Below are positions 3,598-44,599 of a stretch of 64,000 nucleotides of DNA, one piece after another. The position numbers and the translations under genes are program-made. The stretch is taken from NCBI GenBank assembly GCA_965207755.1, contig OZ242297.1, forward strand, positions 2,311,406-2,375,405. Reading direction: 5' to 3'. Source of the DNA: Acidimicrobiales bacterium (GTDB taxonomy: Bacteria > Actinomycetota > Acidimicrobiia > Acidimicrobiales > Aldehydirespiratoraceae). A model generated the notes under the pieces. That model made no database searches. It was not told the DNA's origin and worked only from the letters and a program-made list of their open reading frames with translations. Within the stretch, counting starts at the first letter, position 1. Every line of letters starts with the position of its first letter.

Positions 3598-4097
3598 GTC
3601 GCCTCGAACAGCCCGTCGGGAACCTCCACCTCGATCCGCTCGCCGGGCACCGAACGGACGAGGAAGCGCAGCGGCACGAGGGCGCCGCCGGCGAGCTCGA
3701 GCAGGTCTCCGGCCGGACCGGCCACAACCGACGACACCAAGCCCCGGTCCGTGCCCGACTGGTCGACCACCCGGGCGCCGATCAGCTCGTGGACCCACAG
3801 CTCATCGGGGTCCGCGATCGGCGCGGCCCGCAGCACCAACCCCCTCAGAGCCTCGGCCTGGCTGCGGTCGTCGACACCGTCGAAGGCCACCAGATGGCGC
3901 CCGCTGTGGGGCCGGGCCGACGACACCCGCAGGATCCCCACATCGGTCCGCAGCTCCGATCCGGGCGCCAGGCGCTCGGGCCGGTTCGACACCAGCGTGA
4001 CGGCCACCTCGCCGCCGGTGCCGTGGGGCCGCCCGACGCGGCCGACCTCCAGCAACGACGCCGTCCCGGCGCCGGACGAGTCGACGCTCTCAGCCAC
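3594..4097 (-). CDS. rimM: 16S rRNA processing protein RimM
   Basis: LLEVGRVGRPHGTGGEVAVTLVSNRPERL... followed by a PRC-barrel C-terminal part. It sits in the conserved rpsP-KH-rimM-trmD-rplS context. Confidence 0.93.
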   Translation of the reverse strand: MAESVDSSGAGTASLLEVGRVGRPHGTGGEVAVTLVSNRPERLAPGSELRTDVGILRVSSARPHSGRHLVAFDGVDDRSQAEALRGLVLRAAPIADPDELWVHELIGARVVDQSGTDRGLVSSVVAGPAGDLLELAGGALVPLRFLVRSVPGERIEVEVPDGLFEAT

Positions 4098-4192
4098 GCC
4101 CGCCCTTGTTCGCTTCGCACACAGGCCGCTCGGGCCACCGCCGCGCTCGACGCCCCCCGAGAATCACGAGGCTGGCGCCCGCCCGCCCGGCC

Positions 4193-6427: not shown

Positions 6428-7507
6428 TCAGGCGAACAGCGCCTCCACGAACTCCGAGGCGTCGAAGGGCACCAGGTCGGCGATCCCCTCGCCGACTCCG
6501 ACGAGCTTCACCGGCACCCCGAGCTCGGCCTGCACGGCCACCACGATCCCGCCCTTGGCCGAGCCGTCCAGCTTGGTGAGCACGACCCCGGTCACATCGA
6601 CGGCCTCGGTGAACTGCCGGGCCTGGGCCAAGCCGTTCTGGCCGGTCGTGGCGTCGAGCACCAGAAGGGTCTCGGTCACCACCCCCGACCCCTTGCCGGC
6701 CACCCGCCGCACCTTCTGGAGCTCGGCCATGAGGTTGCGCTCGGTGTGGAACCGGCCGGCCGTGTCGGCCAGGACCAGATCCGCCCCCCGGGCCGCCGCC
6801 GACTCCACCGCGTCGTACACCACCGACGCGGGATCGGCACCGGCCGAGCCCCGCACGACGTGCGCCGAGGAGCGCTCCGCCCACATGGCCAGCTGGTCCG
6901 CGGCGGCGGCCCGGAAGGTGTCGCCCGCGGCCATCACCACCCCGGCGCCGGCGTCGGCCTCGCGCTTGGCCAGCTTGCCGATGGTGGTGGTCTTTCCGGT
7001 GCCGTTGACCCCGACGAACAGCCACACCGACGGCCGTCCGCCGTCGCGGCGGCCGGCCAGCGACCGGTCGAAGCCGCCGAGCCGTTCCCGCAGCTCGGCC
7101 TTCAGGGCCGCAGTCGCCTCCTGGGCCCGGTTCCCGCCCGAAGCAGCCCGCGATCTGGCCGCCTCGACTATCTCGGAACTGGTCGTCAGCCCGACGTCGG
7201 CCCGGATCAGGGCCTCGGTGACCTCGGTCCAGGCCTCCTCGGTGGACGAGGCCCGCTCCAGCGCCGAGGCCAGCGGCCCGCCCAGCGCAGCCCGCGCCTT
7301 CGACAGGCGGTCGCGCAGCGAGGGCGCCGGGCCCTCGGTTCCGGCTCTGCCGGCCAGCCGGCCGACCACCCGGTCCGCCGCCTCGCCGGCGGCGGCCTGC
7401 GGGTCCGGGGCCGCGGTCGCCGACGGCCGGCGGCGCCGGCGGGCCACCACGACCGCGACCAGTGCCGCCGCCAACGCGACCAGTACGACAACGAGGATCA
7501 GCGTCAT
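6428..7507 (-). CDS. ftsY: SRP receptor FtsY with N-terminal membrane anchor
   Basis: MTLILVVVLVALAAALVAVVVARRRRR anchor, plus GVNGTGKTTT, DTAGR and TKLDGSAKGG motifs. Confidence 0.96.
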   Translation of the reverse strand: MTLILVVVLVALAAALVAVVVARRRRRPSATAAPDPQAAAGEAADRVVGRLAGRAGTEGPAPSLRDRLSKARAALGGPLASALERASSTEEAWTEVTEALIRADVGLTTSSEIVEAARSRAASGGNRAQEATAALKAELRERLGGFDRSLAGRRDGGRPSVWLFVGVNGTGKTTTIGKLAKREADAGAGVVMAAGDTFRAAAADQLAMWAERSSAHVVRGSAGADPASVVYDAVESAAARGADLVLADTAGRFHTERNLMAELQKVRRVAGKGSGVVTETLLVLDATTGQNGLAQARQFTEAVDVTGVVLTKLDGSAKGGIVVAVQAELGVPVKLVGVGEGIADLVPFDASEFVEALFA

Positions 7508-7702
7508 CGGCGGTCGATGCTACCCGGGGTCCCGAGGCGGCGGCCGGGCTGGGCAGGGAACCGTGCGGCCTGGACAACGTACGCAGGACCAGGAGGCTGA
7601 GAGGCCGCCGGCCGCGCCGCGACCTGGCCCAAACCCCGGCCCTCGACGGCCGGCCGGCGGTCGCTCACGACGGCTCGCCGCAGAGGACCAGCCCCGGGCG
7701 TG

Positions 7703-9388
7703 TCAGGGGTCTGCTGGGTCTGGGCGTGTCCAGGGGCCTGCGCCGCCTATGTGGGTCACGGTCTCGGCTCGGGGCGGGTCGTATTGGCTGTGGGCGGCCC
7801 AGTGGAAGTCCAGGCCGAAGTCGTGGCGGCGGTTGCCGTCGTCGTCGGTGGCGGGCAGCCCCCGCAGCGGCTGGTCGGGGCCGGCCCGGCGGTCGATGGG
7901 GACCAGCCGATGCACCGCGAGGACCCTGTGGTGCTCGTCGAGGAACGTCAGGTAGGCGCGCACGTCCTCGATGACGAGGTCCTGGAGTGTCTCGGTGTCG
8001 ACGGCGCCGGGATGCGAGGTCGGCGCCGCGAGGTCCACCCGGGTGCTCCACTGGCGGATCGCGGCGTGGTCTCCGGGCCCGAGCGACGGATCCAGGGGCG
8101 CCCAGTTCGCGCCGAAAGCGGGGTCGGCCGCTTGTCGCAGCACCCAGGAGACGCCCCACGGCGACGTGCGTGCCGGGTCGACCGCGAGGCTGGGGTCTCC
8201 GCGGAAGGAGCGGCTCAGGTCCGGCCGCGGCGACATCTCGGCGCTCACCGCGAGCTCGAAGCGCTGCGGCATCTCAGTCACCGCCGCCGCGTCCAGCACG
8301 AACGGCGCCACCTCCCCGGGCTGCAGCGTCAACGCGAACACCGACTCCTGTTCGCCCCACGTCACCGTCACCCGGCGCGCGAACAGCGCCGCGGATCTGT
8401 TCTGCACCAGCCCCAGCAACTCGCCGCCGCGCAACGCAGCGGTGTCCCACAACAGCACCACCTCATCGGCGGGCGCCTCCACCGCGAACACGCCGAGAGG
8501 CGCCCGATAGCCCAGCAGTTCGCCCCCGTAGCCCAGACTGTGGCCGCAGCCGTACAGGCACGCCGTCTCCCGCGCGGTCCGCTGCGCGGCCTCCGTCGCG
8601 GCCTGCGGCGACTCCCTGGGCGGCCCGAACCCGTCCCAGGTCACGTGCGCGTACAGCGGGGCGCCTTCGACGCCGCACCCGGGCCGCAGCTCGAAGACCT
8701 CGCCGAAGATCACGTTGAGGTCGGCCTGTCCGGGGCTGGGACCGACACGCCAGATCTCGTCATAGACCGCCGTCAGGGTGTCGTCGGTGTCGCCGCACAG
8801 CCAGAGGACCTTGCCCAGCAGCGGTTCCCAAGGCGACTGCTGCTCGACGCGCAGCGGGCCCGCGCCCTTCCCGACCACCGCGCCGGGCCGCCCCGGCCGG
8901 GCCACCAGCCCGCCGGGCCGACCCGACCCGTCCGAACCCCCCGACCAGAAGACACCCGCCCCGCCGGGGCCCTCCCGGCCGACATCGACGCTCCCCGCAC
9001 CGTCATCGACGCTCCCCGCACCGTCATCGACCCCGCCGCCGCCGACAGCGACGCTGGAGGAACGGGACCCGTCGAGCGGTCCCTCACCCGAACCCGGCCC
9101 GGGCACATCCCCGGCCGGCACCACCCCGCCGACAGGCACGCCGCCGGGCACAGCGGGCTCGGGCTCGTCCCGCGGACCAGGGAACCATCCGCTGCCGGGC
9201 TCGGCCGCGGCCGGGGCTGCCGGCGGCGTCGCCGCGCCCTGGCCGACAGGCTCGGGCGACGCGCACGACACGGCACCGGCCAGCGCCAGCGCCGCCCCCG
9301 CCGCGCCCCATGGCGCCCGGCGCGCACGGCGGCCGTGTCCCGCAAGCGCGCGACGGCGCGCCGCGGCCGCTCTCAGCGGATGTGGCAT
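7703..9388 (-). CDS. Uncharacterised lipoprotein, family X copy 1 (Cys-rich N-domain plus one LVQN/QPGEVAPF module)
   Basis: The ATG at 9388 gives MPHPLRAAAARRR...AALALAGAVSC, a lipobox. It is paralogous along its whole length to 13170..14978 and shares a module with the 766/768-aa proteins. Its start overlaps the upstream gene's stop by 16 nt. Confidence 0.8.
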   Translation of the reverse strand: MPHPLRAAAARRRALAGHGRRARRAPWGAAGAALALAGAVSCASPEPVGQGAATPPAAPAAAEPGSGWFPGPRDEPEPAVPGGVPVGGVVPAGDVPGPGSGEGPLDGSRSSSVAVGGGGVDDGAGSVDDGAGSVDVGREGPGGAGVFWSGGSDGSGRPGGLVARPGRPGAVVGKGAGPLRVEQQSPWEPLLGKVLWLCGDTDDTLTAVYDEIWRVGPSPGQADLNVIFGEVFELRPGCGVEGAPLYAHVTWDGFGPPRESPQAATEAAQRTARETACLYGCGHSLGYGGELLGYRAPLGVFAVEAPADEVVLLWDTAALRGGELLGLVQNRSAALFARRVTVTWGEQESVFALTLQPGEVAPFVLDAAAVTEMPQRFELAVSAEMSPRPDLSRSFRGDPSLAVDPARTSPWGVSWVLRQAADPAFGANWAPLDPSLGPGDHAAIRQWSTRVDLAAPTSHPGAVDTETLQDLVIEDVRAYLTFLDEHHRVLAVHRLVPIDRRAGPDQPLRGLPATDDDGNRRHDFGLDFHWAAHSQYDPPRAETVTHIGGAGPWTRPDPADP

Positions 9389-9837
9389 GACGGTTTGTGC
9401 TTGTCGAGCGGCCCCCAGCCGCTGCCGCCGGTGTAGGTGCCCTCGTAGGCCTCTGCTGTCAGCGTGATGCCGCTGTAGATGATCCCGACCTGCAGGCATC
9501 TGTTCCTGTAGCGGCGGTTGATCTCATCGGCGTCGGCGCCGCTGGCGGGAGTCTCCTGCTGCCACCGCTCCGCCAGCGTCGTCACCGCCAGGTCAGCGGC
9601 CCTCTGACGGGCATCGCTCGAGCGGACCCTCTCCGCGGCGCCGCCCACCGTGTCGCCCATGAGCACCACCGCAACCGCGGCGATCCCCGCCACCGCGGCC
9701 ACCACCAGCAGCCACTCCAGAGTCGTCAACCCCTCCTCGCGCCCGGGCCGCGCACCGGTCCTGCCGCGCCGGCCGATGCCCGGGCCGCCGCCGACCGGGC
9801 GCAGGCCGCCGCGGCGTCGCCTACCCGGCGCCGTCAT
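9373..9837 (-). CDS. Type-IV/Flp-pilin-like protein, copy 1 (basic leader, G/LTTLEW motif, hydrophobic helix, C-terminal Cys pair)
   Basis: MTAPGRRRRGGLRPVGGGPGIGRRGRTGARPGREEG|LTTLEWLLVVAAVAGIAAVAVVL, with Glu at +5 after the Gly. The start was chosen by alignment with copy 2. Two conserved Cys lie near the C-terminus. Confidence 0.75.
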   Translation of the reverse strand: MTAPGRRRRGGLRPVGGGPGIGRRGRTGARPGREEGLTTLEWLLVVAAVAGIAAVAVVLMGDTVGGAAERVRSSDARQRAADLAVTTLAERWQQETPASGADADEINRRYRNRCLQVGIIYSGITLTAEAYEGTYTGGSGWGPLDKHKPSCHIR

Positions 9838-12121
9838 GCACGCCGCCCACGGTGATGGCGAAGTCGTGGTATTCGTAGTTCGGCAGGAACACCACCAGGA
9901 AGGACGAGTCCAGGCCGATGCGATGCACTTGGACCGGGCCATACGTGCCGTCATCGCGGGTTGTCTCTATGTAGGGGGTCAACTCGCTCACGTCGAGGAC
10001 CCTGTCTTCGTCGTCGAGCCGGGTCAGGTAGACCCGCAGGTCCTCGACCACCAGGTCCGCCACCTCGCCGGCGACGCTGGGATGCGAGGTCGGCTCCTCA
10101 AGCCGGATGAGCGTCTCGTAGGCTTGGACCCAGTCGTCGCGCGACACGCCCTCGGGGCGGACGATGTGGGGGTACCATCCCAGCACGTGCTCGACCTGAC
10201 CCCAGGTGTCGGCCCAGATGCCGGGCAGTCCCGAGACTAGGAACGAACGCCGCAGGTCCGGCTCGGGCGTCAACTGCGCGCTCACCTCCAAGCCGATCGA
10301 CTCAGGGTCTGAGGGCCCCTGATATCCCCCTATCTCGAAGGGCGCCACCTCGCCGGGCTGCACCGTCAACGGGAACACCCACCTGCCTTCGCCCGCAGAC
10401 ACCGTCACATGGCGAGCGAACAGCCTGTCGGACATGTTCTGCACCAGGCCCCTGACCGTCTCGCCGTCCACCAGCACCGAATCCAGCCGCACCGCCACCT
10501 CGTCGCTGAACACGTCTGAGTCGTAGCGGTCAGGCCAGTAGTCCGCGTACCCGAACTCGATGATGCTCCAAGGCTGGGCCTTCCTCAGCGGCCCCGGAAG
10601 ATCAGCAGCCGCGCCGTCGCCGCCGGGCGTCTCAGAGCCCGGCCGCGGACTCCCATCGGGCCCGTCGGCGCCCTCGGCGCCGTCGTGGGCGCCGCCCACG
10701 GTGATGCCGAGGTTGAATCTGCCGTAGGTGCTGCCCGGGGTCGGCAGGAACACCACTAGGCGGTGTCTGTTCTCGCGGTCGGCTCGGCGCGCCGGGACCA
10801 CGCGGCGTCTGCCGTCGTTGCCGGTCACCTGTGCGTAGGGGGTCAACTCGCTCACGTCGAGGACCCTGTCCTCGTCGTCGAGCCGGGTCAGATAGACCCG
10901 CAGGTCCTCGACCACCAGGTCCGCCGCCTCGCCGGCGACGCTGGGATGCGAGGTCGGCTCCTGAAGCGAGACGGACGTCTCGTAGGCGTGGCCCCTGTCG
11001 CCGCGCGACACGCCCTCAGGGCGCACGATGTGGGGGAACCGGCGATACACCTCCTCGATGTGGTCCCAGGTGCCGGCCCAGACGCCGGGCAATCCCGAGA
11101 CCCGGAACGAACGCCGCAGATCCGGCTCAGGCGTCAACTGCGCGCTCACCTCCAAACCGATCGACTCAGGGTCTGCCGGCCCGCGGTAGCCGTCGATCTC
11201 GAAGGGCGCCACCTCGCCGGGCTGCACCGTCAACGGGAACACCCACCTGCCTTCGCCCGCAGACACCGTCACATGGCGAGCGAACAGCCTGTCGGACATG
11301 TTCTGCACCAGGCCCCTGACCGTATCGCCGTCCACCAGCACCGAATCCAGCCGCACCGCCACCTCGTCGCTGAACACTTCTGAGTCGTAGCGGTCAGGCC
11401 AGCCGTCCAAGTACCCCAACTCAAAGAAGGCCCCATTTCCCAGCGCGCGCCTCAGCGGCCCCGGACCATCAGCAACCGCACCGTCGCCGCCCGGCGCCTC
11501 AGAGCCCGGCCGCGAACCCCCATCCGGCGCCTCGGCGCCCGCGCCGGGCTCTCGGGCGCCCCCGACGCCGTCAGGCCCGGCATCACCGGACGGATCCTCC
11601 CCATCAGCCGGGCCGGCAGCATCCCCGGACACCGCGGCCCGCCCCACCGCCACCGCACCAACCCCCCGACCGGGCATCCCGCCAGCGGACCCGTCGCCGG
11701 GCGCGAGCGCCTCCGCGGCGGCGTCACGGACCCCGGCCCCCGCACCGGGCATCCCGCCAGCGGACCCGTCGCCGGCGCCTCCCGCCGCTGCGACCGCACC
11801 CGCAGCATCGCCGGCGTCCCGGCGTGGGTCAGCGATCCCGAAGCCGTCAACGGCACCGGAGCCGGCGTCCTCGAACCACCCGCCGCCGGCGCCGGAGCCC
11901 GTGCCGTCGAACCACTCCGCACCACCGCCGGGCGTGTCAAGCGGATCGCCCGCACCGGACGCGGCGTCGGGCCGCCCGCAGCCCGCCAACAACACAGCCG
12001 CAACCCACCAGACCAGCAGCCGCCTCCGCCCAGTACCGCACCCCCGGCCAAGCACAGCAACGTCGCCCGCCCGCTCGGCCCCATCCGCCCCGACACGCCC
12101 CGCGGGCGTCCGGCCCCGCAT
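9821..12121 (-). CDS. Uncharacterised lipoprotein with two tandem LVQN/QPGEVAPF modules, copy A (766 aa from MRGRTP; alternative ATG at 12145)
   Basis: Signal and lipobox RRRLLVWWVAAVLLAGCG, a Gly/Ala/Asp-rich linker, then two modules of about 270 aa. Near-identical to 15822..18128 except for the last 135 aa or so. Confidence 0.8.
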   Translation of the reverse strand: MRGRTPAGRVGADGAERAGDVAVLGRGCGTGRRRLLVWWVAAVLLAGCGRPDAASGAGDPLDTPGGGAEWFDGTGSGAGGGWFEDAGSGAVDGFGIADPRRDAGDAAGAVAAAGGAGDGSAGGMPGAGAGVRDAAAEALAPGDGSAGGMPGRGVGAVAVGRAAVSGDAAGPADGEDPSGDAGPDGVGGAREPGAGAEAPDGGSRPGSEAPGGDGAVADGPGPLRRALGNGAFFELGYLDGWPDRYDSEVFSDEVAVRLDSVLVDGDTVRGLVQNMSDRLFARHVTVSAGEGRWVFPLTVQPGEVAPFEIDGYRGPADPESIGLEVSAQLTPEPDLRRSFRVSGLPGVWAGTWDHIEEVYRRFPHIVRPEGVSRGDRGHAYETSVSLQEPTSHPSVAGEAADLVVEDLRVYLTRLDDEDRVLDVSELTPYAQVTGNDGRRRVVPARRADRENRHRLVVFLPTPGSTYGRFNLGITVGGAHDGAEGADGPDGSPRPGSETPGGDGAAADLPGPLRKAQPWSIIEFGYADYWPDRYDSDVFSDEVAVRLDSVLVDGETVRGLVQNMSDRLFARHVTVSAGEGRWVFPLTVQPGEVAPFEIGGYQGPSDPESIGLEVSAQLTPEPDLRRSFLVSGLPGIWADTWGQVEHVLGWYPHIVRPEGVSRDDWVQAYETLIRLEEPTSHPSVAGEVADLVVEDLRVYLTRLDDEDRVLDVSELTPYIETTRDDGTYGPVQVHRIGLDSSFLVVFLPNYEYHDFAITVGGVHDGAG

Positions 12122-12123
12122 CG

Positions 12124-12479
12124 TCACACTCGGTGCCAGCTGCATGTCCCCTGTGTGGGGCAGTGCTTGATGTAGAGGACCCTGGTACCCACAGCATTCA
12201 CGAACCCTTCACCGAGAACCCTCCGGGCAGCGCACGTCGGCCGCCGCGGACCCCGCACCGAGACGCCGCAGCCGCTCCGGCGCGCCCTCCAGCCCAGGAA
12301 ACCCCACCAGACCGAACACCGCCGCCGACACCGCCGGCAGCCACAACAGACCCGGACGCGCCCGACCTGTCCGCCGGACCGCCCCGCATCTGCACGGCGA
12401 CCGTCGCTGCACCCCCAAAACTGTACACAACCCTCACCGGCCGCCACAGCCGCCCACCCCGGACACGCCGGCTGCCATG
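12124..12479 (-). pseudogene. Deletion derivative of the leader-ORF plus 884-aa gene: 73-aa leader ORF copy (12209..12430) joined to the last 27 codons or so of the large gene
   Basis: The DNA about 12205-12479 matches about 20775-21055. The 12124-12210 segment encodes ...FVNAVGTRVLYIKHCPTQGTCSWHRV, identical to the C-terminus of the 18131..20785 protein. The roughly 2.5 kb in between is absent. Confidence 0.75.
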
Positions 12480-12486
12480 CGCCCGG

Positions 12487-12862
12487 GCCGGACCGGCCAC
12501 GACCGACGCCACCAAGCCCCGGTCCGTGCCCGACTGGTCGACCACCCGGGCGCCGATCAGCTCGTGGACCCACAGCTCATCGGGGTCCGCGATCGGCGCG
12601 GCCCGCAGCACCAGCCCCCTCAGAGCCTCGGCCTGGATGCGGTCGCCGATGCCGGCGAAGGCCACCAGGTGGCGCTTGTTGTGGGGTCGGGCCGAGGAGA
12701 CCTGCAGGGTCCCCGAGTCGGTCCGCAGCTCCGATCCGGGCGCCAGGCGCTCGGGCCGGTTCGACACCAGAGTGACGGTCACCTCGCCGCCGGTGCCGTG
12801 GGGCCGCCCGACGCGGCCGACCTCCAGCAGCGGCGCCGTCCCGGCGCCGGACGAGTCGGCCT
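12487..12862 (-). pseudogene. Partial copy of rimM (roughly residues 5-128), lacking its own start and the C-terminal PRC-barrel end
   Basis: The DNA aligns base for base with 3709-4083, with scattered substitutions. It encodes DSSGAGTAPLLEVGRVGRPHGTGGEVTVTLVSNRPERLAPGSELRTD...IADPDELWVHELIGARVVDQSGTDRGLV. Confidence 0.85.
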
Positions 12863-12882
12863 GTTCAGTCACGCAGCCCGGA

Positions 12883-13137
12883 AGGCGCCCGATAGCCCAA
12901 CTCCTCGCCGCCGAAGCCGAGACTGTGGCCACAGCCGTACAGACACCCCGCCTGCTGCGCCGCGTCGGTCGCCTCCTCCGGCGACGCCCTCGCCGAGCCG
13001 AACCCGTCCCAGGTCACGTGCGCGTACAGCGCAGCGCCCTCGCGGCCACGCTCGGGCCGGATCTCGAACAGCTCGCCGAAGATCACATTGATGTCGGCCT
13101 GCCCAGGGCTGGGACCCACACGAACCGTCTCATTCCA
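12883..13137 (-). pseudogene. Fragment of a family-X lipoprotein gene (part of the Cys-rich N-domain only)
   Basis: Encodes VRVGPSPGQADINVIFGELFEIRP...LYAHVTWDGFGSARASPEEATDAAQQAGCLYGCGHSLGFGGEELGYRAP, matching the interior of 7703..9388 (DNA about 8490-8760). It has no signal peptide and no module. Confidence 0.8.
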
Positions 13138-13169
13138 GGCGCGCATGAGCGGACGGGTGCCTGTGTGCG

Positions 13170-14978
13170 TCACGGGCCCGCCGCGTCTGCGCGTGTCCAC
13201 GGGCCTGCGCCGCCTATGTGCAGCACGGCCTCGACTTCGATCGGGTCGTATTCGCTGTCGGCGGCCCAGTAGAACTCCAGACCGAAGTCGTAGATCAACT
13301 CGCCCATGCCGTTGTACTGGAGGTTGCCGTCTTCGTCGCGCACAGGCAGCCCCCTCAGCGGCTCGTCAGGGTCGGCCCAGCCGTTCTCGGGGACCAGCCG
13401 ATGCACCGCGAACACTCTGCCGTGCCCGTCGAGGAACGTCAGATAGGCGCGCATTTCCTCAACGACCAGATCCTCCAACCCGGCCACCACATCGGGATGC
13501 GACTCCGGCGCCACCAACTCCACAGAGATGTTCCACTCGCGCATATTGACCTCATCGCCGGGTCCCAGCGACGGATCCAGAGGCGCCCAGTTCGCGCCGA
13601 AGTCCGGGTCCGCCATCTGCTGCTGCACCCAGCCGACGTCCCAATACGACGAATGCAGCGCACCGAACGGGAAATCGGCGAAGAACGAGCGGCTCAGGTC
13701 AGGCTGCGGCGACAGCGCCGCGCTCACCTCGACCTCAGACGGCTCCGGCAGCACAGAGGACCCGGCGGCGTCCAGCACGAACGGCGCCACCTCCCCGGGC
13801 TGCAACGTCAACGCGAACACCGACTCCCGCCCGCCCCACCTCACCGTCACCTCACGCGCGAACAACTCCGCGGACATGTTCTGCACCAGCCCCAGCATCT
13901 CGCCGCCGCGCAGCGCCACCGAATCCCACAACAGCACCACCTCATCGACAGGCGCCTCCACCGCGAACGCCCCATAGGGCGCCTCATAGCCCAACAACTG
14001 GCCGCCGTAGCCGAGATTGTGGCCACAGCCATACAGGCACGCCCCCTCCTGCACCGCCTCCGTCGCCTCCTCGGGCGACCCCCTCGCCGGCCCGAACCCG
14101 CGCCAAGTCAAATGCACATACAACCGGCCGCGGTCGCCGCCGCACTCACCGTCTTGGAAATCGGCGATCTTCAGGCCCATCAGATACAGATCAGACGACG
14201 GCGGATCGGCGACACGCACCACCTTCTCGAACATCGCCGCCACCGCGTCGGCGTCACAAACCTCCAAGACATCGCCCATAACCGCATCCCAAGGTAGATA
14301 CCCCCAGGGCTCGTCGCTGCGAAGCGGACCCTGACCATTCGCAACCACCGCCCCGCGCTGGTGCGGCCGGCCAACCAACTCGCCAGGCTCACGGAACCCG
14401 CCCGAACCCCCCGACCCAGACACCGAAACCTCCTCCGAAACACCCACCCCGCCGCCATCAACAACAGCCCCGACATCATCAACGGCCCCGCCATCGACGG
14501 ATCCGCCATCATCAACGGCCCCATCACCGGCCCCGCCATCATCAACAACCCGTCCGCCGTCAGCGACACCGCCGCCAACAGCATCACCGCCGCCGCCGTC
14601 AACGACCACGACACTGGAAGGCATGCGCTCGTCGGACAGGCCCCCACCAGCACCCGTATCCGACACATCCCCAGCCGACACCGCCCCGCCGCCGGCTCCT
14701 GCAGCGGCATCGGCTGCGGGCCCATGCCCGTGCCCCGGATCAGAGAACGAGCGACCGTCGACTGCCTCACCGCCGCCGGGCTCGGCTGCGGGCTCAGAGA
14801 TGTGCCCCCGATCAGAGAACCAGCCGCCGACACGCTCGTCCACGGCCGGGGGCGCCGCCTCGCCTCCGCCGTCAGGCTCAGACGGCGCGCACGACACGGC
14901 CCCGACCAGCGCCGCCAACACCAACCCCGCGCCGCCCAGGACCCGAAGCCGGCCATCCTTCACCGTCGAAGCTCGCAT
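13170..14978 (-). CDS. Uncharacterised lipoprotein, family X copy 2
   Basis: The ATG at 14978 gives MRASTVKDGRLRVLGGAGLVLAALVGAVSC, a lipobox. It has a Gly/Asp/Val low-complexity linker, a CLYGCGHNLGYGG N-domain and one LVQN/QPGEVAPF module. It ends HIGGAGPWTRADAAGP, like copy 1. Confidence 0.8.
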   Translation of the reverse strand: MRASTVKDGRLRVLGGAGLVLAALVGAVSCAPSEPDGGGEAAPPAVDERVGGWFSDRGHISEPAAEPGGGEAVDGRSFSDPGHGHGPAADAAAGAGGGAVSAGDVSDTGAGGGLSDERMPSSVVVVDGGGGDAVGGGVADGGRVVDDGGAGDGAVDDGGSVDGGAVDDVGAVVDGGGVGVSEEVSVSGSGGSGGFREPGELVGRPHQRGAVVANGQGPLRSDEPWGYLPWDAVMGDVLEVCDADAVAAMFEKVVRVADPPSSDLYLMGLKIADFQDGECGGDRGRLYVHLTWRGFGPARGSPEEATEAVQEGACLYGCGHNLGYGGQLLGYEAPYGAFAVEAPVDEVVLLWDSVALRGGEMLGLVQNMSAELFAREVTVRWGGRESVFALTLQPGEVAPFVLDAAGSSVLPEPSEVEVSAALSPQPDLSRSFFADFPFGALHSSYWDVGWVQQQMADPDFGANWAPLDPSLGPGDEVNMREWNISVELVAPESHPDVVAGLEDLVVEEMRAYLTFLDGHGRVFAVHRLVPENGWADPDEPLRGLPVRDEDGNLQYNGMGELIYDFGLEFYWAADSEYDPIEVEAVLHIGGAGPWTRADAAGP

Positions 14979-15374
14979 CACGACAGCAGCGAGCCGACGG
15001 CCGGGTCGATCCACTCGCAGGCCGCCGCAGTCGCGGCCACAGCCGCGCCGCATTCCTCGTTGTCGCCCGCCCTCACATAGAGCACCCTTCCGTCCACGTT
15101 GCCGACGTACCAGCCGTTGCCGTGCGGTCCCAGCCTCGACGCTCGCGCGTACTGGTCGTCTGGGACGGCCTTGATCAGCGTGTGGGCGTAGCCGGTGTGC
15201 GCCTTGGGGAACACCGCGTACTTGGTGCCTTCGTGCGCGATCTTGTCCGGGTTGGTCAACGAGACGAACGCGACCTGTCCTCTTGGCGAACCTGTAGACG
15301 CTGCCCGCGGGGTTGCACGACCCGCCGTAGACGCGCAGCCCGCCGTCGCCGCACGCCTCGACCGGCGCCGTCAT
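14978..15374 (-). pseudogene. Stand-alone paralog of the C-terminal domain of the 884-aa protein; apparently split by a 1-nt frame change
   Basis: The ATG at 15374 (ATGA overlap with the pilin-like stop) gives MTAPVEACGDGGLRVYGGSCNPAGSVYRFAKRTG. Homology then continues in the next frame: VAFVSLTNPDKIAHEGTKYAVFPKAHTGYAHTLIKAVP...GWYVGNVDGRVLYVRAG. Compare ...GGATVYHPDG...LGFVSFTDTDGTKYAAFP...GWFVNAVGTRVLYIKHC in the large protein. Confidence 0.6.
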
Positions 15375-15838
15375 CGGATCGCGAGAATGCTGCACAGCGG
15401 CGTGTTGTGCCAGCCGGTCGGCCGGTCGGGGTCATAGATGCCTTCGACGATGTCGGTTCCCGCCAAAACGTCGGCGTAGATGATCTCCAGTCGCCGGCAC
15501 CGCCGCCGGTAGCGGGCGTTGATCTGGTCGGCGTCGCTCTGTGTGGAGGGCCGCTGCTGCTGCCAGGCGTCCTCGAGCTCGGTGGCCGCGAGGTCCGCGG
15601 CCTCCTGACGCGCGCTGTGGGATCCGACCTGCTCGGCCGTGCCGCCGACCACGCTCTGCACCAGCACCACGCCCAGCGCGGCCAGCCCCGCCACCGCGGC
15701 CACCACCAGCAGCCACTCCAGAGTCGTCAACCCCTCATCGCGCCCGGGCCGCGCACCGGTCCTGCCGCGCCGGCCGGTGCCCGGGCCACCGCCGACCGGG
15801 CGCAGGCCACCACGGCGTCGCCTACCCGGCGCCGTCAT
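15371..15838 (-). CDS. Type-IV/Flp-pilin-like protein, copy 2
   Basis: MTAPGRRRRGGLRPVGGGPGTGRRGRTGARPGRDEG|LTTLEWLLVVAAVAGLAALGVVL. The first 50 aa or so are nearly identical to copy 1 and the mature part is divergent. The Cys pair is conserved. Confidence 0.78.
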   Translation of the reverse strand: MTAPGRRRRGGLRPVGGGPGTGRRGRTGARPGRDEGLTTLEWLLVVAAVAGLAALGVVLVQSVVGGTAEQVGSHSARQEAADLAATELEDAWQQQRPSTQSDADQINARYRRRCRRLEIIYADVLAGTDIVEGIYDPDRPTGWHNTPLCSILAIR

Positions 15839-18128
15839 GCACGCCGCCCACGGTGATGGCGAAGTCGTAGTCGTCGTAGTTCAGCAGAAACACCACCAGG
15901 AAGTACCTGTTCTCGCGGTCGATTCGGCGCACCTGGATCGGGCCGTAGGTCCCGTCGTCGCGGGTTGTCTCCTTGTAGGGGGTCAGCTCGCTCACATCGA
16001 CGATGCGGTCGGCGTCGTCGAGCCGGGTCAGGTACACCCGCAGGTCCTCGACCACGAAGTCCGCCGCCTCGCCGACGACGCTGGGATGCGAGGTCGGCTC
16101 CTCCTCAAACTCGATGAACGTCTGGTAGACGTAGGCCAACTCGTCGCGCGACACGCCCTCGGGGCGGACGATGTGGGGGTACCATCCCAGCACGTGCTCG
16201 ACCTGATCCCAGGTGTCGGCCCAGAACCCCGGACTGTTCTCGACCCAGAACGAACGCCGCAGGTCCGGCTCGGGCGTCAGCTGCGCGCTCACCTCCAAGC
16301 CGATCGACTCAGGGTCTGAGGGCCCCTGATATCCCCCTATCTCGAAGGGCGCCACCTCGCCGGGCTGCACCGTCAACGGGAACACCCACCTGCCTTCGCC
16401 CGCAGACACCGTCACATGGCGAGCGAACAGCCTGTCGGACATGTTCTGCACCAGGCCCCTGACCGTATCGCCGTCCACCAGCACCGAATCCAGCCGCACC
16501 GCCACCTCGTCGCTGAACACGTCTGAGTCGTAGCGGTCAGGCCAGTGGTCCGAGTACCCGAACTCGATGATGCTCCAAGGCTGGGCCTTCCTCAGCGGCC
16601 CCGGAAGATCAGCAGCCGCACCGTCGCCGCCGGGCGTCTCAGAGCCCGGCCGCGGACTCCCATCGGGCCCGTCGGCGCCCTCGGCGCCGTCGTGGGCGCC
16701 GCCCACGGTGATGCCGAGGTTGAATCTGCCGTAGGTGCTGCCCGGGGTCGGCAGGAACACCACTAGGCGGTGTCTGTTCTCGCGGTCGGCTCGGCGCGCC
16801 GGGACCACGCGGCGTCTGCCGTCGTTGCCGGTCACCTGTGCGTAGGGGGTCAACTCGCTCACGTCGAGGACCCTGTCCTCGTCGTCGAGCCGGGTCAGAT
16901 AGACCCGCAGGTCCTCGACCACCAGGTCCGCCGCCTCGCCGGCGACGCTGGGATGCGAGGTCGGCTCCTGAAGCGAGACGGACGTCTCGTAGGCGTGGCC
17001 CCTGTCGCCGCGCGACACGCCCTCAGGGCGCACGATGTGGGGGAACCGGCGATACACCTCCTCGATGTGGTCCCAGGTGCCGGCCCAGACGCCGGGCAAT
17101 CCCGAGACCCGGAACGAACGCCGCAGATCCGGCTCAGGCGTCAACTGCGCGCTCACCTCCAAACCGATCGACTCAGGGTCTGACGGCCCCTGATATCCCC
17201 CTATCTCGAAGGGCGCCACCTCGCCGGGCTGCACCGTCAACGGGAACACCCACCTGCCTTCGCCCGCAGACACCGTCACATGGCGAGCGAACAGCCTGTC
17301 GGACATGTTCTGCACCAGGCCCCTGACCGTATCGCCGTCCACCAGCACCGAATCCAGCCGCACCGCCACCTCGTCGCTGAACACTTCTGAGTCGTAGCGG
17401 TCAGGCCAGCCGTCCAAGTACCCCAACTCAAAGAAGGCCCCATTTCCCAGCGCGCGCCTCAGCGGCCCCGGACCATCAGCAACCGCACCGTCGCCGCCCG
17501 GCGCCTCAGAGCCCGGCCGCGAACCCCCATCCGGCGCCTCGGCGCCCGCGCCGGGCTCTCGGGCGCCCCCGACGCCGTCAGGCCCGGCATCACCGGACGG
17601 ATCCTCCCCATCAGCCGGGCCGGCAGCATCCCCGGACACCGCGGCCCGCCCCACCGCCACCGCACCAACCCCCCGACCGGGCATCCCGCCAGCGGACCCG
17701 TCGCCGGGCGCGAGCGCCTCCGCGGCGGCGTCACGGACCCCGGCCCCCGCACCGGGCATCCCGCCAGCGGACCCGTCGCCGGCGCCTCCCGCCGCTGCGA
17801 CCGCACCCGCAGCATCGCCGGCGTCCCGGCGTGGGTCAGCGATCCCGAAGCCGTCAACGGCACCGGAGCCGGCGTCCTCGAACCACCCGCCGCCGGAGCC
17901 GGAGCCCGTGCCGTCGAACCACTCCGCACCACCGCCGGGCGTGTCGGGCGTGTCGCCCGCACCGGACGCGGCGTCGGGCCGCCCGCAGCCCGCCAACAAC
18001 ACAGCCGCAACCCACCAGACCAGCAGCCGCCTCCGCCCAGTACCGCACCCCCGGCCAAGCACAGCAACGTCGCCCGCCCGCTCGGCCCCATCCGCCCCGA
18101 CACGCCCCGCGGGCGTCCGGCCCCGCAT
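15822..18128 (-). CDS. Uncharacterised lipoprotein with two tandem LVQN/QPGEVAPF modules, copy B (768 aa; alternative ATG at 18152)
   Basis: Same architecture as 9821..12121. The ATG at 18128 lies 2 nt after the stop of the 884-aa gene. Confidence 0.8.
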   Translation of the reverse strand: MRGRTPAGRVGADGAERAGDVAVLGRGCGTGRRRLLVWWVAAVLLAGCGRPDAASGAGDTPDTPGGGAEWFDGTGSGSGGGWFEDAGSGAVDGFGIADPRRDAGDAAGAVAAAGGAGDGSAGGMPGAGAGVRDAAAEALAPGDGSAGGMPGRGVGAVAVGRAAVSGDAAGPADGEDPSGDAGPDGVGGAREPGAGAEAPDGGSRPGSEAPGGDGAVADGPGPLRRALGNGAFFELGYLDGWPDRYDSEVFSDEVAVRLDSVLVDGDTVRGLVQNMSDRLFARHVTVSAGEGRWVFPLTVQPGEVAPFEIGGYQGPSDPESIGLEVSAQLTPEPDLRRSFRVSGLPGVWAGTWDHIEEVYRRFPHIVRPEGVSRGDRGHAYETSVSLQEPTSHPSVAGEAADLVVEDLRVYLTRLDDEDRVLDVSELTPYAQVTGNDGRRRVVPARRADRENRHRLVVFLPTPGSTYGRFNLGITVGGAHDGAEGADGPDGSPRPGSETPGGDGAAADLPGPLRKAQPWSIIEFGYSDHWPDRYDSDVFSDEVAVRLDSVLVDGDTVRGLVQNMSDRLFARHVTVSAGEGRWVFPLTVQPGEVAPFEIGGYQGPSDPESIGLEVSAQLTPEPDLRRSFWVENSPGFWADTWDQVEHVLGWYPHIVRPEGVSRDELAYVYQTFIEFEEEPTSHPSVVGEAADFVVEDLRVYLTRLDDADRIVDVSELTPYKETTRDDGTYGPIQVRRIDRENRYFLVVFLLNYDDYDFAITVGGVHDGAG

Positions 18129-18130
18129 CG

Positions 18131-20785
18131 TCACACTCGGTGCCAGCTGCATGTCCCCTGTGTGGGGCAGTGCTTGATGTAGAGGACCCTGGTACCCACA
18201 GCATTCACGAACCAGCCGTAACCATCACCGACACCAGCGCCCACTTCGCGGGCGTACTTGTTCTTGGGGACGCCCCTGATGAGGGTCTCGGCGTAGCCGG
18301 TGCCGGTGCCGGCCTCGCCGATGTCGTTGGCCGGGAACGCCGCGTACTTGGTGCCGTCGGTGTCGGTGAAGGACACGAACCCCAACGGCAGCGGGGTTAT
18401 GTCATACCAGATCTCGAAAGTTCCGCAGCCGGCGTCCTTGCAGTGCTTCCTGGTCCTGCCGTCGGGGTGATAGACCGTCGCGCCGCCCTCGGCGTTGGCG
18501 ATGTCATACCAGTGGCAGTCGAAGGGCTCGCCGCCGGTGCCCCACCGGCAGCGGCGATCCTGCACCCCTCCGTCGGGATCTGAGCCCGCCACCCGGCGGA
18601 CCCTCAACGCGTCGTTGGCGTCGTCATAGATGGTCTCAGCTATAGGGATGCAGTGATTGATGTCGGGATCCTCCCCGAACCGCTTCTGCGCCTTGCACGC
18701 AAGCCAGGTCTCAAGCTGTTTCTTGAGTTTCTCCTCGCTCGCGCAGAGCCCGCCGAAGAGGTGCTTCGCGACCTCGACGGCGGCGTGGTTGACGTTGGCC
18801 CGTTTGGCGTGGTGCCACTCCTTGACCGGCTCCCACAAGTCGAGTTGCCACGGGCCCACGCCGGGGCTCCAGTGCGCGCGCGGCTCGCCGGTCTGGGTGC
18901 CCTTGGAGAACAGGCCGGTGCTCTCATCGTTGGTGAACAGCGAATCCCACCGCGACAGGTCCATCAGCGACGGGTTGTCCTTGTGGAGTTCGCGGATCGG
19001 TATGGCCAGCACGTACGCGGCCAACTCGTTGGCGGTGACCGGATCGCTGTCTCGTGTGACGCACTCCCTGCCGGCGTTGCCGTCGATCACCCGGCGAGCC
19101 GCGGACATGACCCCGTCGATGATCGCGGCGCCGTACCGGTAGGCCGCGGTGCGGCACCGCTGGTCGGCGGGGTTCCTGAACAGCGGAGAAGCGCACACGC
19201 GGGGCCGGCAGCCGTCGTCGGAGCCCCTGGCGAACGCCGACATGTAGGTCTGATCAGACGGGCACACGTTCACCGCGGACACCGAGAGGGTGAACCCGCC
19301 CGGGTTCCGGTCGGCGCGTCTGGCTACCTCGACGGTGTAGCGGCCCACCATCCCCTCGGGGTTGAGCAGCGCGCTGACGGTCGCGGCGCGGGCTTCGCCG
19401 CCGGGGCTGGAGGCCGTGTGCAGCGGCTTGGCGCTGCCGGCGTCGCCGTCATGCACATACACATCGATGGCATGGTCAGAAACCGCCACGACGGTGACCG
19501 TCGCCGCCTCCGCCAGCGTGAGCGTGTAGCGCTTGGCGTAGTAAGGGGTCTGGTCGCCGTGCTGCGACGACTTGCACGACGACACCCACACGTTGCCCAC
19601 CCGGGCCCCGCCGAGGGTGATCCGCAACTCGCAGACAACCGGCGACACCACGGTGAAGACCGCCGTCTTGCGGGCGGCGGCGTAGCCGTCGCTAAAGCAC
19701 CTGACCGTGACCTGCACTTCGCCCACCGCCGATCCGGTGTCCAACCTCACGCTGCGCTGCGTGCCGTCGTCGTCGGGGATCGGCAGCGGCGCCGACAGCG
19801 GGCCCGACCCCTGCCACGCATAACAGTTCGCGTCGCCTGGAACCACACCGAAGTCCGCATCGATCGGCGACACGTCCGAGACGTCCCCCAAGCCGGTGAT
19901 CGCGACCCTGGCGGGTGTGGCGGGCTCAGGCTCGTCTGAGTCCGTGTCAGGCTCGTCTGAGTCCGTGTCAGGCTCGTCTGAGTCCGTGTCAGGCTCGTCT
20001 GAGTCCGTGTCAGGCTCGTCTGAGTCCGTGTCAGGCTCGTCTGAGTCCGTGTCAGGCTCAGGCGTGTCAGGCTCGGGCTCGTCTGAGTCCGTGTCAGGCT
20101 CGTCTGAGTCCGTGTCAGGCTCAGGCGTGTCAGGCTCGGGCTCGTCTGAGTCCGTGTCAGGCTCAGGCGTGTCAGGCTCGGGCTCGTCTGAGTCTGTGTC
20201 GGGCTCAGGCAGGGTCGTCGTGGTGGTGGTACTCGTCGTTGTTGTGCTCGTCGTGGTGGTCGTGGTGGTGGTGCTGGTCGTTGTTGTGGTCGTGGTGGTC
20301 GTGCTGGTACTGGTCGTGGTGGTGGGGTGGGTGTGGGGCACTGGGTCCGCGGTCACGTAGCGGTAGCAGGAGATGGCGCGCCCGTAGGCCTCCTGGGTGT
20401 AGCCGCCGGGGCAGCGCATCGACGTGCGCGTCGACCACGCGTCCACCGTCTTGTAGCAGCCAGCCCCGATCCTGCGATACCCCGCCGAGCACACATAGCG
20501 GGTCTCAGTCACGGTGCGGGTGCGGCCCCTCACCCAGCACCCCGTGCCCGAAGTCGCCGACGTGCTGCAATAGCGCGTGCCCCTGATCCCGCGCCAGTAG
20601 CCCTGACGCACGCACCCCGCCCGCGTCGCCATGTCGACACACACCGTCTTCGTCGTCGTCCTCGCAGTGGCGTCCACCCGCACGCTGCGGGTACACGACG
20701 GACCGCTCCGCACCCCGAGACAGACCCTCACCGTCGTCACCACCACCGGCGCGTACTCGCGTTTGCGGCAGCCCGAACCCTTCAC
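18131..20785 (-). CDS. 884-aa multidomain protein: Cys-rich repeats, poly-Thr/Ser linker, DTDSDEP acidic heptad repeats, a PPC-like beta domain (tentative), a possible lysozyme-like region (tentative) and a conserved C-terminal domain
   Basis: Long ORF with coding-type repeats and visibly lower GC than its neighbours. The GTG start overlaps the stop of the 72-aa leader ORF (GTGA). No signal peptide at the annotated start. Confidence 0.75.
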   Translation of the reverse strand: MKGSGCRKREYAPVVVTTVRVCLGVRSGPSCTRSVRVDATARTTTKTVCVDMATRAGCVRQGYWRGIRGTRYCSTSATSGTGCWVRGRTRTVTETRYVCSAGYRRIGAGCYKTVDAWSTRTSMRCPGGYTQEAYGRAISCYRYVTADPVPHTHPTTTTSTSTTTTTTTTTSTTTTTTTTSTTTTSTTTTTTLPEPDTDSDEPEPDTPEPDTDSDEPEPDTPEPDTDSDEPDTDSDEPEPDTPEPDTDSDEPDTDSDEPDTDSDEPDTDSDEPDTDSDEPDTDSDEPEPATPARVAITGLGDVSDVSPIDADFGVVPGDANCYAWQGSGPLSAPLPIPDDDGTQRSVRLDTGSAVGEVQVTVRCFSDGYAAARKTAVFTVVSPVVCELRITLGGARVGNVWVSSCKSSQHGDQTPYYAKRYTLTLAEAATVTVVAVSDHAIDVYVHDGDAGSAKPLHTASSPGGEARAATVSALLNPEGMVGRYTVEVARRADRNPGGFTLSVSAVNVCPSDQTYMSAFARGSDDGCRPRVCASPLFRNPADQRCRTAAYRYGAAIIDGVMSAARRVIDGNAGRECVTRDSDPVTANELAAYVLAIPIRELHKDNPSLMDLSRWDSLFTNDESTGLFSKGTQTGEPRAHWSPGVGPWQLDLWEPVKEWHHAKRANVNHAAVEVAKHLFGGLCASEEKLKKQLETWLACKAQKRFGEDPDINHCIPIAETIYDDANDALRVRRVAGSDPDGGVQDRRCRWGTGGEPFDCHWYDIANAEGGATVYHPDGRTRKHCKDAGCGTFEIWYDITPLPLGFVSFTDTDGTKYAAFPANDIGEAGTGTGYAETLIRGVPKNKYAREVGAGVGDGYGWFVNAVGTRVLYIKHCPTQGTCSWHRV
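19915..20210. repeat. Coding tandem repeat (21-nt unit GGCTCGTCTGAGTCCGTGTCA and longer variants) encoding DTDSDEP / PEPDTPEP; followed by a poly-Thr-encoding tract at about 20215-20335
   Basis: Read directly in the DNA. The units are contiguous with no spacers, and they lie in frame inside 18131..20785. Confidence 0.9.
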
Positions 20786-21000
20786 CGAGAACCCTCCGGG
20801 CAGCGCACATCGGCCGCCGCTGACCCCGCACCGAGACGCCGCAGCCGCTCAGGCGCGCCCTCCAGCCCAGGAAACCCCACCAGACCGAACACCGCCACCG
20901 ACACCGCCAGCAGCCACAACAGACCCCGACGCGCCCAGCCCCGCCGGGCCGCCCCGCCTCCGCACGGCGACCGTCGCTGCACCCCCAAAACTGTACACAA
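20782..21000 (-). CDS. 72-aa leader ORF with a signal-peptide-like hydrophobic segment (may be the detached N-terminus of the 884-aa protein)
   Basis: ...RRGWARRGLLWLLAVSVAVFGLVGFPG... The same ORF is conserved in the remnant at 12209..12430. Its stop overlaps the downstream GTG. Confidence 0.5.
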   Translation of the reverse strand: MCTVLGVQRRSPCGGGAARRGWARRGLLWLLAVSVAVFGLVGFPGLEGAPERLRRLGAGSAAADVRCPEGSR

Positions 21001-21089
21001 CCCTCACCGGCCGCCACAGCCGCCCACCCCCGACACACCGGCTGCCATGCGCCCGGCCGCCGCACGGCCGTCGTGCAGGCGGCCGCCGG

Positions 21090-44594: not shown

Positions 44595-44599
44595 CGGGT

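Follow-up and report, generated by a model that had tools for sequence, protein, structure and literature searches.

An extracytoplasmic protein–lipoprotein pair in a duplicated, prepilin-bearing cassette of sponge-symbiont Acidimicrobiia

In the muramidase effector–immunity systems pesticin–Pim and, for type VI secretion, Tse3–Tsi3 and Tge–Tgi, a secreted wall-targeting enzyme is encoded beside an extracytoplasmic cognate immunity protein, which is often a lipoprotein. A gene cassette of comparable layout was analysed in the window, i.e., a stretch of 64,000 nucleotides (nt) from an Acidimicrobiales bacterium of the Aldehydirespiratoraceae (contig OZ242297.1, positions 2,311,406 to 2,375,405). 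The cassette lies in a block on the minus strand (positions 7703–21000 of the window) and is composed of three gene families, which were delimited by all-against-all comparison with related loci and by mapping with hidden Markov models (HMMs). These were L, a large exported protein that ends in a conserved C-terminal domain (Lc); M, a family of predicted lipoproteins that includes the divergent family X; and P, a small pilin-like protein. L and M are new to annotation, and together they form a conserved extracytoplasmic pair that is strongly expanded in sponge symbionts. The pair is read here, with a probability of roughly 45%, as a secreted lysozyme-like enzyme and its membrane-tethered inhibitor or immunity partner, maintained in an array that evolves by birth and death.

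The likeness to the muramidase systems extends to the co-divergence of the pairs, the extra or orphan immunity genes, and the location in variable islands. L–M differs from them in that neither Lc nor M falls into an effector or immunity family described so far, and the activity of Lc is putative. In addition, L is apparently exported by the Sec pathway only, with no domain for type VI or type VII secretion or colicin-type translocation. The host is an actinobacterium, and M, with its double sandwich of 270 amino acids (aa) that is sometimes duplicated, is far larger than the immunity proteins of those systems. The lysozyme inhibitors Ivy, MliC/PliC, and PliG resemble M in that they are beta-rich and extracytoplasmic, some being lipoproteins (MliC), and they block lysozyme-fold enzymes, including the lytic transglycosylases of the cell itself. 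No sequence or fold match was found between them and M; unlike M, they measure about 100–130 aa and lack a strict one-to-one gene pairing with an enzyme. The SleB–YpeB pair is likewise bicistronic and joins a lysozyme-fold wall hydrolase to a membrane-anchored multi-domain partner, and YpeB both stabilises SleB and keeps the enzyme inactive. Its families are different, with PepSY domains in YpeB and Hydrolase_2 in SleB, and it is single-copy and sporulation-specific, without the arrays, orphan partners, or pilin of the L–M cassettes.

Two further groups of systems share part of the organisation. The orphan arrays of Rhs and contact-dependent inhibition (CDI) systems contain 3' fragments, each followed by an intact partner, downstream of a full copy and with deletion scars, as in the block. 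In contrast to these arrays, the L stubs comprise only 30–90 codons, which is too short for a working Lc; there is a single conserved C-terminal family, and Rhs/YD or CdiA repeats are absent. The Tad/Flp and type IV pilins share the N-terminal architecture and the Cys pair of P. The mature P protein (about 115–125 aa) is larger than Flp, and its gene lies inside L–M cassettes, far from assembly genes.

Pairing of L and M in Acidimicrobiia and in other bacteria

The pairing of L and M was counted in non-redundant related loci, with M required to share the strand of Lc and to lie no more than 700 nt from it. M directly followed a full Lc domain in 40 of 42 cases, and it directly followed an Lc 3' stub in all 10 cases. 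The two proteins also diverged in parallel. The identities of Lc domains and of the adjacent M modules were correlated over 38 pairs (Mantel r = 0.80, p = 0.001), and a correlation was also present among 12 paralogous L–M pairs of a single genome (r = 0.60, p = 0.001). L and M are cognate partners, as shown by this pairing and co-divergence. Arrays of 5–6 L–M pairs were observed in Ca. Poriferisodalis at several loci per genome, and at least 15 pairs were present in one 4.4-Mb genome. The cassettes were situated at ruvA/ruvB, truA/rplQ–rplM, or smc/ftsY, or they split a duplicated dehydrogenase gene, and they often lay beside PIN, HepT/MNT, AbiEii, and Abi_C genes and transposases. The initial annotation, made from the sequence of the window alone, had named the conservation of the gene neighbourhood in other genomes as a test of its proposal; the neighbourhood is conserved.

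The distribution of the families was narrow at the level of close homologues. A word index retrieved only 7 homologues of L among 5.8 billion proteins, 36 of M, and 141 of P. Every match in the genome collections came from a sponge-associated or marine metagenome-assembled genome (MAG) of the Acidimicrobiia. A scan of one genome per species confined M to Acidimicrobiia MAGs, with carriers in Ca. Poriferisodalis, Ca. Poriferisocius, Ca. Aldehydirespirator, Ilumatobacter, and some other Acidimicrobiia. The Poriferisodalaceae and Aldehydirespiratoraceae clades are sponge-symbiotic lineages of this class (PMC11706023). A literature search on the conserved motif, on FxLYD/DUF3426, and on the host taxa returned nothing on these genes. 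A phage or plasmid origin of the cassette was considered and rejected because tblastn of Lc against plasmids and phages, as well as pattern scans of viral contigs (IMG/VR) for M and Lc, revealed no relatives.

At the level of profiles, Lc extended into other bacteria. Three stand-alone Lc genes were viewed in their context, i.e., in Haloechinothrix, in an integrase-flanked island (locus L044), and in an organism with a guanine-plus-cytosine (GC) content of 30%, where the Lc gene stood beside Abi_C and PIN_8 genes. All three were preceded by a gene for a membrane-anchored protein of ~300–335 aa, with a 4-nt overlap in two of the three loci and a 28-nt gap in L044. This partner carries the M motifs GLVRNxT...RPGEPAPF. 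When M was aligned with the partners by hhalign, a score of 36.6 was obtained (E 4e-4, 166 columns), compared with at most 32.7 (median 14.2) for shuffled profiles and 10.0 for the reversed profile. On this comparison, M and the cross-phylum partners are likely, but not certainly, homologous.

The cross-phylum set consisted of 82 Lc loci with 83 Lc genes (79 loci from a metagenome scan, together with L043, L044, and L046). An M-like neighbour was detected at 54 of the 83 Lc genes (45 upstream, 10 downstream), and only 8 genes lacked one despite sufficient flanking sequence. Among the evaluable loci, the Lc–partner pair was present in 54 of 62, in hosts ranging from 30% to 75% GC. Hence, the pair is conserved across phyla; it predates the sponge symbionts and ranges beyond them. 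Clustering of the neighbouring genes in these loci yielded no third core gene, in an analysis swamped by wrong-frame open reading frames (ORFs) at high GC. The Lc–partner island of L044 (1–12984) lies between two phage-type integrase genes and also contains a Beta_protein gene and Multi_ubiq/ThiF/BubE genes of a ubiquitin-like conjugation system.

Structure of L and M and their proposed function

L proteins comprise 700–1200 aa, are Cys-rich, carry a predicted signal peptide, and end in Lc. The initial annotation had placed none of the large proteins in a known family, and the database searches agreed: L, M, and X had no match in Pfam, NCBIfam, PHROGs, or PADLOC, and sequence and profile searches of the PDB with L, M, and Lc returned nothing. 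For the window proteins as a whole, PADLOC gave no match and PHROGs no meaningful match. In the L protein of the window, a run of ~45 mostly Thr residues precedes a tract of at least 12 tandem 21-nt units (19851–20228) that encode PEPDTDSDE. The two segments likely form an extended spacer of variable length, which is possibly glycosylated. An AlphaFold2 (AF2) model of L residues 296–884, built on a 7-sequence alignment, gave N-terminal sandwiches with predicted local distance difference test (pLDDT) values of 60–85. In Foldseek searches, one L sandwich resembled the PPC domain 5sv5 (TMt 0.75, probability 1.00), followed by 1nqj and 2o8o (TMt 0.6–0.7). The modelled middle domain of L accordingly resembles the PPC and ColG collagen-binding domain (CBD) fold; the Pfam PPC model found no match in L.

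Invariant in Lc are a Glu that closes a predicted helix, an R..D motif, PGVGxWQLD, and about 8 Cys. The Lc profile retrieved 317 cluster representatives with HMMER, many of which were secreted stand-alone proteins of ~310 aa, and all of which were unannotated. Other relatives were fused to FG-GAP, fn3, RTX, or SLH domains, and Pfam searches of 41 Lc members and 20 distant relatives recovered accessory domains of these four kinds only. A comparison profile of the SLT/GH23 type was assembled from six members, i.e., E. coli Slt70, EmtA, MltC, MltD, and MltF and goose lysozyme. The hhalign comparison of Lc (127 sequences) with this profile gave a score of 31.1 and an E value of 6e-4, whereas 100 column shuffles scored at most 17.3, the reversed profile 11.7, and unrelated cross-comparisons 14–17.5. 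In the alignment, the invariant Glu fell on the catalytic Glu and PGVGxWQLD on GLMQ. This similarity is suggestive, but not proof, of a lysozyme/lytic-transglycosylase (GH23)-like Lc in which the invariant Glu would be catalytic.

M consists of a lipobox, a long disordered tether rich in Gly, Asp, Ala, and Pro, and a module of ~270 aa. The M proteins of the window that carry two modules (M2; 766–776 aa) and the X proteins, which are divergent M proteins with an extra N-domain, share this module, and the lipoboxes LLAGC, LAGAVSC, and LVGAVSC were read in the translations, both as the initial annotation had described. With the pattern [LVI][ASTVI][GAS]C, lipoboxes were present in M2A and M2B (...VLLAGC/G, the slash marking the boundary after Cys) and in X1 and X2 (...GAVSC). 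The consensus of the family is GCG, and most full-length homologues read ...VVGC, LAGC, or GAC. Structure prediction of the module had been recommended at the outset; module 2 of M2B was modelled by AF2 with a pLDDT of 91.6 as two beta-sandwiches, and Foldseek found no neighbour in the PDB or BFVD (best TM 0.15–0.29). The M module is thus predicted with confidence as a double beta-sandwich, one without structural neighbour. Matches of M to alpha-amylase-inhibitor and amphi-Trp families (E about 1e-3, below cutoffs) were dismissed as generic beta-sandwich noise.

A secreted setting is supported by the lipoboxes of M, by the signal peptide and the many Cys of L, and by the fusions of Lc relatives to SLH, RTX, FG-GAP, and fn3 domains. 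The earlier idea of a co-expressed extracytoplasmic system was correct in this respect. We infer enzymatic activity for Lc, a physical complex of L with M, and an inhibitor or immunity role of M. In the proposed mechanism, L would be exported via its N-terminal signal peptide and would carry variable binding domains, namely, Cys-rich repeats, an Ig-like sandwich, and the PPC/collagen-binding-like sandwich. The disulfide-rich Lc would cut glycan as a lysozyme- or lytic-transglycosylase-like hydrolase. The tether of M would hold the double beta-sandwich at the outer face of the membrane, where each M would bind and neutralise or regulate its cognate Lc, such that the wall of the producer is protected. 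During array evolution, pairs would duplicate as units and co-diverge, and L would often be lost with M kept, leaving orphan M genes behind 3' stubs of L.

Of the two hypotheses offered by the initial annotation, that of a secreted effector with lipoprotein partners or immunity proteins fits better because of the strict pairing, the co-divergence, the arrays, the orphan M genes behind stubs, and the islands of toxin–antitoxin (TA), Abi, and transposase genes. The ratio of nonsynonymous to synonymous substitution rates (omega) between the copies in the window, 0.6–0.7, was also counted as evidence of selection for it. The part of this hypothesis that did not hold was its polymorphic-toxin label. 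An adjacent cognate gene (40/42) and orphan cassettes (10/10) were found as in such toxins, with the immunity role of M being putative. Judged by its sequences, L–M is nevertheless not a classical polymorphic toxin.

Several points weigh against the enzyme–immunity reading. The lysozyme-like assignment of Lc is weak, as the hhalign probability was only 28%. Moreover, the Pfam SLT models had no match to Lc (1 of 41 members reached E 0.13 with SLT_3), a single goose-lysozyme sequence aligned with the Lc profile over 13 columns at a probability of 0.7%, which was not significant, and the AF2 model of Lc from 7 sequences had a pLDDT below 50 with an unresolved fold. In L, no toxin-trafficking domain was found in Pfam or NCBIfam, and the conserved part is the C-terminus and the variable part the N-terminus, unlike in classical polymorphic toxins. 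M is large for a mere inhibitor (a 270-aa module, sometimes doubled), and several of its polar positions (R, N, S, Q, E, D, R, and H) are strongly conserved, which is unusual for immunity proteins; M could have an activity of its own. The partner gene mostly precedes that of Lc in the cross-phylum pairs, the enzyme–immunity reading gives P no role, and the omega values together with the frameshifted L of the window fit simple decay of this locus equally well.

The conserved polar residues bear on another explanation, in which L is a surface enzyme for feeding or for the host matrix and M is its private partner, acting as a chaperone, a docking factor, or a latency factor. YpeB for the spore cortex-lytic enzyme SleB and Lif for lipase would be its models. 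The substrate of L would be bacterial wall debris, chitin, or sponge matrix, and the expansion would mirror the diversity of substrates or hosts in sponges. The polar residues suggest that M does more than block passively, and a partner is kept even with stand-alone Lc enzymes. The sponge-associated or marine origin of all genome-collection matches agrees with this explanation, as do the variable N-terminal binding domains of L, with their collagen-binding-like PPC fold and the fn3-like repeats of relatives. However, intact M persists after the loss of L at all 10 stubs, which counts against a private chaperone because a chaperone is useless once its client is gone. Conflict systems, more typically, are found in surroundings such as these, with TA, Abi, integrase, and transposase genes, and omega values of 0.6–0.7 are high for a chaperone. 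A feeding or host-matrix role is considered unlikely.

The 317 Lc cluster representatives and the conservation of the pair from 30% to 75% GC point to an extracytoplasmic module of two components that is sizeable and has escaped annotation. Should Lc be a muramidase and M its cognate inhibitor, the pair would represent a new family of enzyme–inhibitor or effector–immunity systems, from which new lytic enzymes might be obtained. The two main clades of sponge-symbiotic Acidimicrobiia show a large, lineage-specific expansion of genes, for which the pair would then account.

The prepilin-like protein P

The pilin-like character of the small protein had been noted initially, and P was found to carry the full signature of class III prepilins, although no curated model matched above its cutoff. 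P has a basic (Arg-rich) leader, the cleavage motif G/LTTLEW with Glu at +5, a hydrophobic helix of ~20 residues, and a C-terminal Cys pair. The cleavage region of P2 reads ...DEG/LTTLEWLLVVAAVAGLAALGVV..., with two conserved Cys. The consensus ...R.E.G/LTTLEWLLVVAAVAGLAALAVVLVQ is near-invariant over 36 members, and it aligns in register with the PilA/geopilin motif KG/FTLIELLIVVAIIGILAAIAI. The best PDB profile matches of P were the N-termini of type IV pilins, again with the cleavage site in register (E 0.06–0.4). Among curated pilin models, DUF4244 gave 20.5 bits against a cutoff of 27, and XpsH/GspH gave E values of 0.01–0.1, far below their cutoffs.

These properties favour the first of the initial hypotheses, an apparatus linked to a pilus or to the surface. 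Here P would be a Tad subunit, L a wall-lytic enzyme, an adhesin, or both, and M an anchor or gate; L would let the pilus pass the thick wall or decorate it, each cassette providing an alternative pilus head. In about 12 loci of the Aldehydirespirator type, the gene after M is P, and the stop codon of the one frequently overlaps the start codon of the other; the link of P to the cassette in this clade is real. In locus L012, a P gene directly follows TadE-like (E 0.012) and Peptidase_A24 (27.9 bits, cutoff 26.5) genes at the end of an L–M array. Dedicated lytic transglycosylases of trans-envelope machines are established (VirB1, EtgA, and FlgJ), and the PPC/CBD-like sandwich of L is of a binding type. 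On the other side, almost all Poriferisodalis arrays lack P, as do 78 of the 82 cross-phylum Lc loci, only 4 of which contain it, and no gene for a pilus ATPase, a platform protein, or a prepilin peptidase was found among the window ORFs scanned. A succession of 5–6 L–M pairs and the orphan M genes are also hard to explain as pilus parts. The pilus apparatus is the weaker of the two hypotheses because the pair does without P in most lineages, and it is regarded as unlikely; the wall-remodelling element of the same proposal retains support from the profile likeness of Lc.

P itself has the features of a Tad-type prepilin paralogue that the cassette acquired in the Aldehydirespirator-like clade; it is accessory and largely confined to that clade. 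A broader variant of the enzyme–immunity reading would join the two lines of evidence. Lc and its partner would then be a widespread, unrecognised, Sec-exported bacteriolytic effector with its immunity protein, and in sponge symbionts they would serve pilin-coupled contact antagonism, with a Tad-type pilus presenting or delivering the wall-cutting enzyme to neighbours and dozens of cassettes per genome. This variant is considered improbable.

In L012 (18488–21411), a small Tad-type cluster in convergent orientation borders the end of a five-pair L–M array of Ca. Poriferisodalis. The cluster consists of an unassigned 235-aa gene, a TadE-like gene, a gene for an A24 prepilin peptidase of 161 aa, and the gene for the P-family pilin. 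A further P gene closes the L–M array on the other strand.

Organisation and state of the locus in the window

The minus-strand ORFs of the block were found at the positions and in the order that had been reported, and codon-position GC indicated minus-strand coding throughout 7.7–21 kb. The overlapping or abutting junctions were seen as well, i.e., a GTGA overlap, overlaps of 16–17 nt, and one 2-nt gap. The features, all on the minus strand, are as follows in the order of transcription.

20782–21000: 5' end of L with signal peptide or signal anchor (...RRGLLWLLAVSVAVFGLVGFPG...), read from the DNA by three-frame translation
18131–20785: body of L, 884 aa (translation, repeats, AF2 model)
about 20336–20785: Cys-rich N-region of L
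about 19851–20330: poly-Thr run and PEPDTDSDE 21-nt repeats of L
about 19256–19900: Ig-like beta-sandwich and PPC/collagen-binding-like beta-sandwich of L (predicted)
18134–19153: Lc domain of L, ~340 aa (Lc HMM match 7.6e-188)
15822–18152: M2B, two-module lipoprotein of 768 aa (lipobox LLAGC; Gly/Asp/Ala/Pro-rich tether)
within 16683–18014: module 1 of M2B
15831–16628: module 2 of M2B
15371–15838: P2, prepilin of Tad/type IV type, whose start overlaps the M2B stop by 17 nt
14981–15277: L', 3' stub of a second L paralogue, ending just before X2
13170–14960: X2, divergent M-family lipoprotein (lipobox LVGAVSC; extra N-domain with motif CLYGCGH; one module)
12865–13200: third X-type gene fragment, N-domain only (68% identity to X1 residues 242–337)
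12486–12874: rimM pseudogene fragment in the junction (Pfam RimM 1.1e-13)
12209–12498: second copy of the L upstream region and signal-peptide ORF, with the same frameshift (93% identity to 20774–21069)
12124–12222: L 3' stub, last ~30 codons (Lc HMM positions 304–338)
9821–12145: M2A, two-module lipoprotein of 766 aa, intact
9373–9837: P1, second prepilin paralogue (synonymous divergence, dS, of 0.51 to P2)
7703–9388: X1, divergent M-family lipoprotein (lipobox LAGAVSC), whose start overlaps the P1 stop by 16 nt

Three features had been described differently before. The ORF of 72 aa that had been listed as a separate leader gene is the signal-peptide 5' end of L, cut off by a frameshift. A 1-nt frameshift at GAG GGT TCT CGG TGA (the GAGGGTTCTCGG site) splits the signal peptide from the body of L; it is identical in both copies of the window, whereas the intact homologue in locus L009 reads straight through (...AAADVRCPAGFSPSGSGCRK...). 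The supposed orphan gene for a C-terminal domain exists as an ORF, but it is the 3' stub L' of a different L paralogue. It matched Lc HMM positions 256–335 (E 7.7e-20) and was 44–49% identical to other L C-termini, with only 45% identity to the L of the window itself. The junction debris was confirmed as remnants and could be specified as the third X-type fragment and a 390-nt copy of rimM. The latter is internal to the gene and is 92.6% identical in nt and 88% identical in aa to the real rimM 8 kb away; it was left behind by ectopic recombination or by exchange with a related strain. The second L 3' stub is fused to the leader copy through an internal deletion of ~2.6 kb, and the junction reads ...GEGF/VNAVGTRVLYIKHCPTQGTCSWHRV up to the stop codon. 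The membership of X2 in the M family was given by the M HMM (E 1.3e-50) and by its blastp relation to M2 and to X-type proteins of locus L003.

The duplication of the unit was reproduced by blastn self-matches, in which 9505–12206 matched 15506–18213 (94.7% over 2716 nt), 7702–8678 matched 13169–14145 (76%), and 12201–12498 matched 20774–21069 (93%). Within the two-module proteins, a module repeat of 864 nt was 85–90% identical. M2A and M2B were ~99% identical over their first 500 aa, and module 2 had diverged; dS between the M2 copies was 0.01–0.02 in the first 500 codons and 0.12 in module 2, and it was about 0.5 for the P and X pairs. This mosaic of dS across M2, P, and X indicates older paralogues plus recent gene conversion. 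In the window, the sole full L is frameshifted after the signal peptide, and the other two L copies are stubs, with four M-family genes (two M2 and two X-type) and two P genes still open. Here the system is partly degraded.

This state raises the explanation that the block is a decaying, recombining cluster of pseudogenes, or in part an assembly artefact, with ORFs that are open only through the high GC of the window (~72%), at which random ORFs are long. The frameshift of L in both copies, the two L stubs, the X and rimM fragments, and the omega values of 0.6–0.7 would all be expected from it. It is opposed by a third-position GC of 0.85–0.88 with the correct codon-position pattern through M2, P, and X, and by M2 ORFs of ~770 aa that are free of indels and have kept their lipoboxes and all family-invariant residues. 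Moreover, the family is clearly functional elsewhere. A single contig of 3,844,843 bp contains L, the two M2 copies, and the two P copies with identical sequences, and the exact 561-aa sequence of X1 is present in the genome collection. Because both copies sit on this one 3.84-Mb contig and the short-read assemblies of relatives collapse the repeat, the duplication is probably not an assembly artefact. Decay or artefact as the explanation of the whole block was rated the least probable of the alternatives, at the level of a very improbable one. An M2-type protein of 756 aa was deposited on a 2364-bp contig in a MAG labelled Gemmatimonadota; the label is probably a binning error that arose from the collapse of the cassette repeat in short-read assemblies.

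The block is set among housekeeping genes, which further downstream include ffh and rplS, and the window proteins were 99% identical to those of one Acidimicrobiaceae MAG. Scans of the window with Rfam and for tRNA genes were empty. The nearest flanking genes are given below.

22667–26158: smc, upstream flank of the block
21090–~22600, minus strand: HtrA/DegP-like serine protease (trypsin and PDZ domains), between smc and the cassette and directly upstream of the L promoter region
6428–7507: ftsY, downstream flank of the block
3594–4163: the real rimM gene, downstream of the block

A trypsin-like gene was also observed near the cassette in loci L010 and L011. It is possible that the HtrA-like protease processes L or M, e.g., at the conserved DLPGPLR motif of M. 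At 44170–49833 (plus strand), an ORF of 1887 aa codes for a subtilase of family S8 that has a P-domain as well as Calx-beta/LapA-like and alpha-2-macroglobulin bait-region matches. The ORF falls in the stretch of lowest GC in the window (0.64 at 46–48 kb). Its product may be a further large protein that is secreted or displayed at the surface, and the region may have been acquired. A gene for a DDE transposase (DDE_Tnp_1_4, E 1e-49; 50041–51402, minus strand) adjoins this region.

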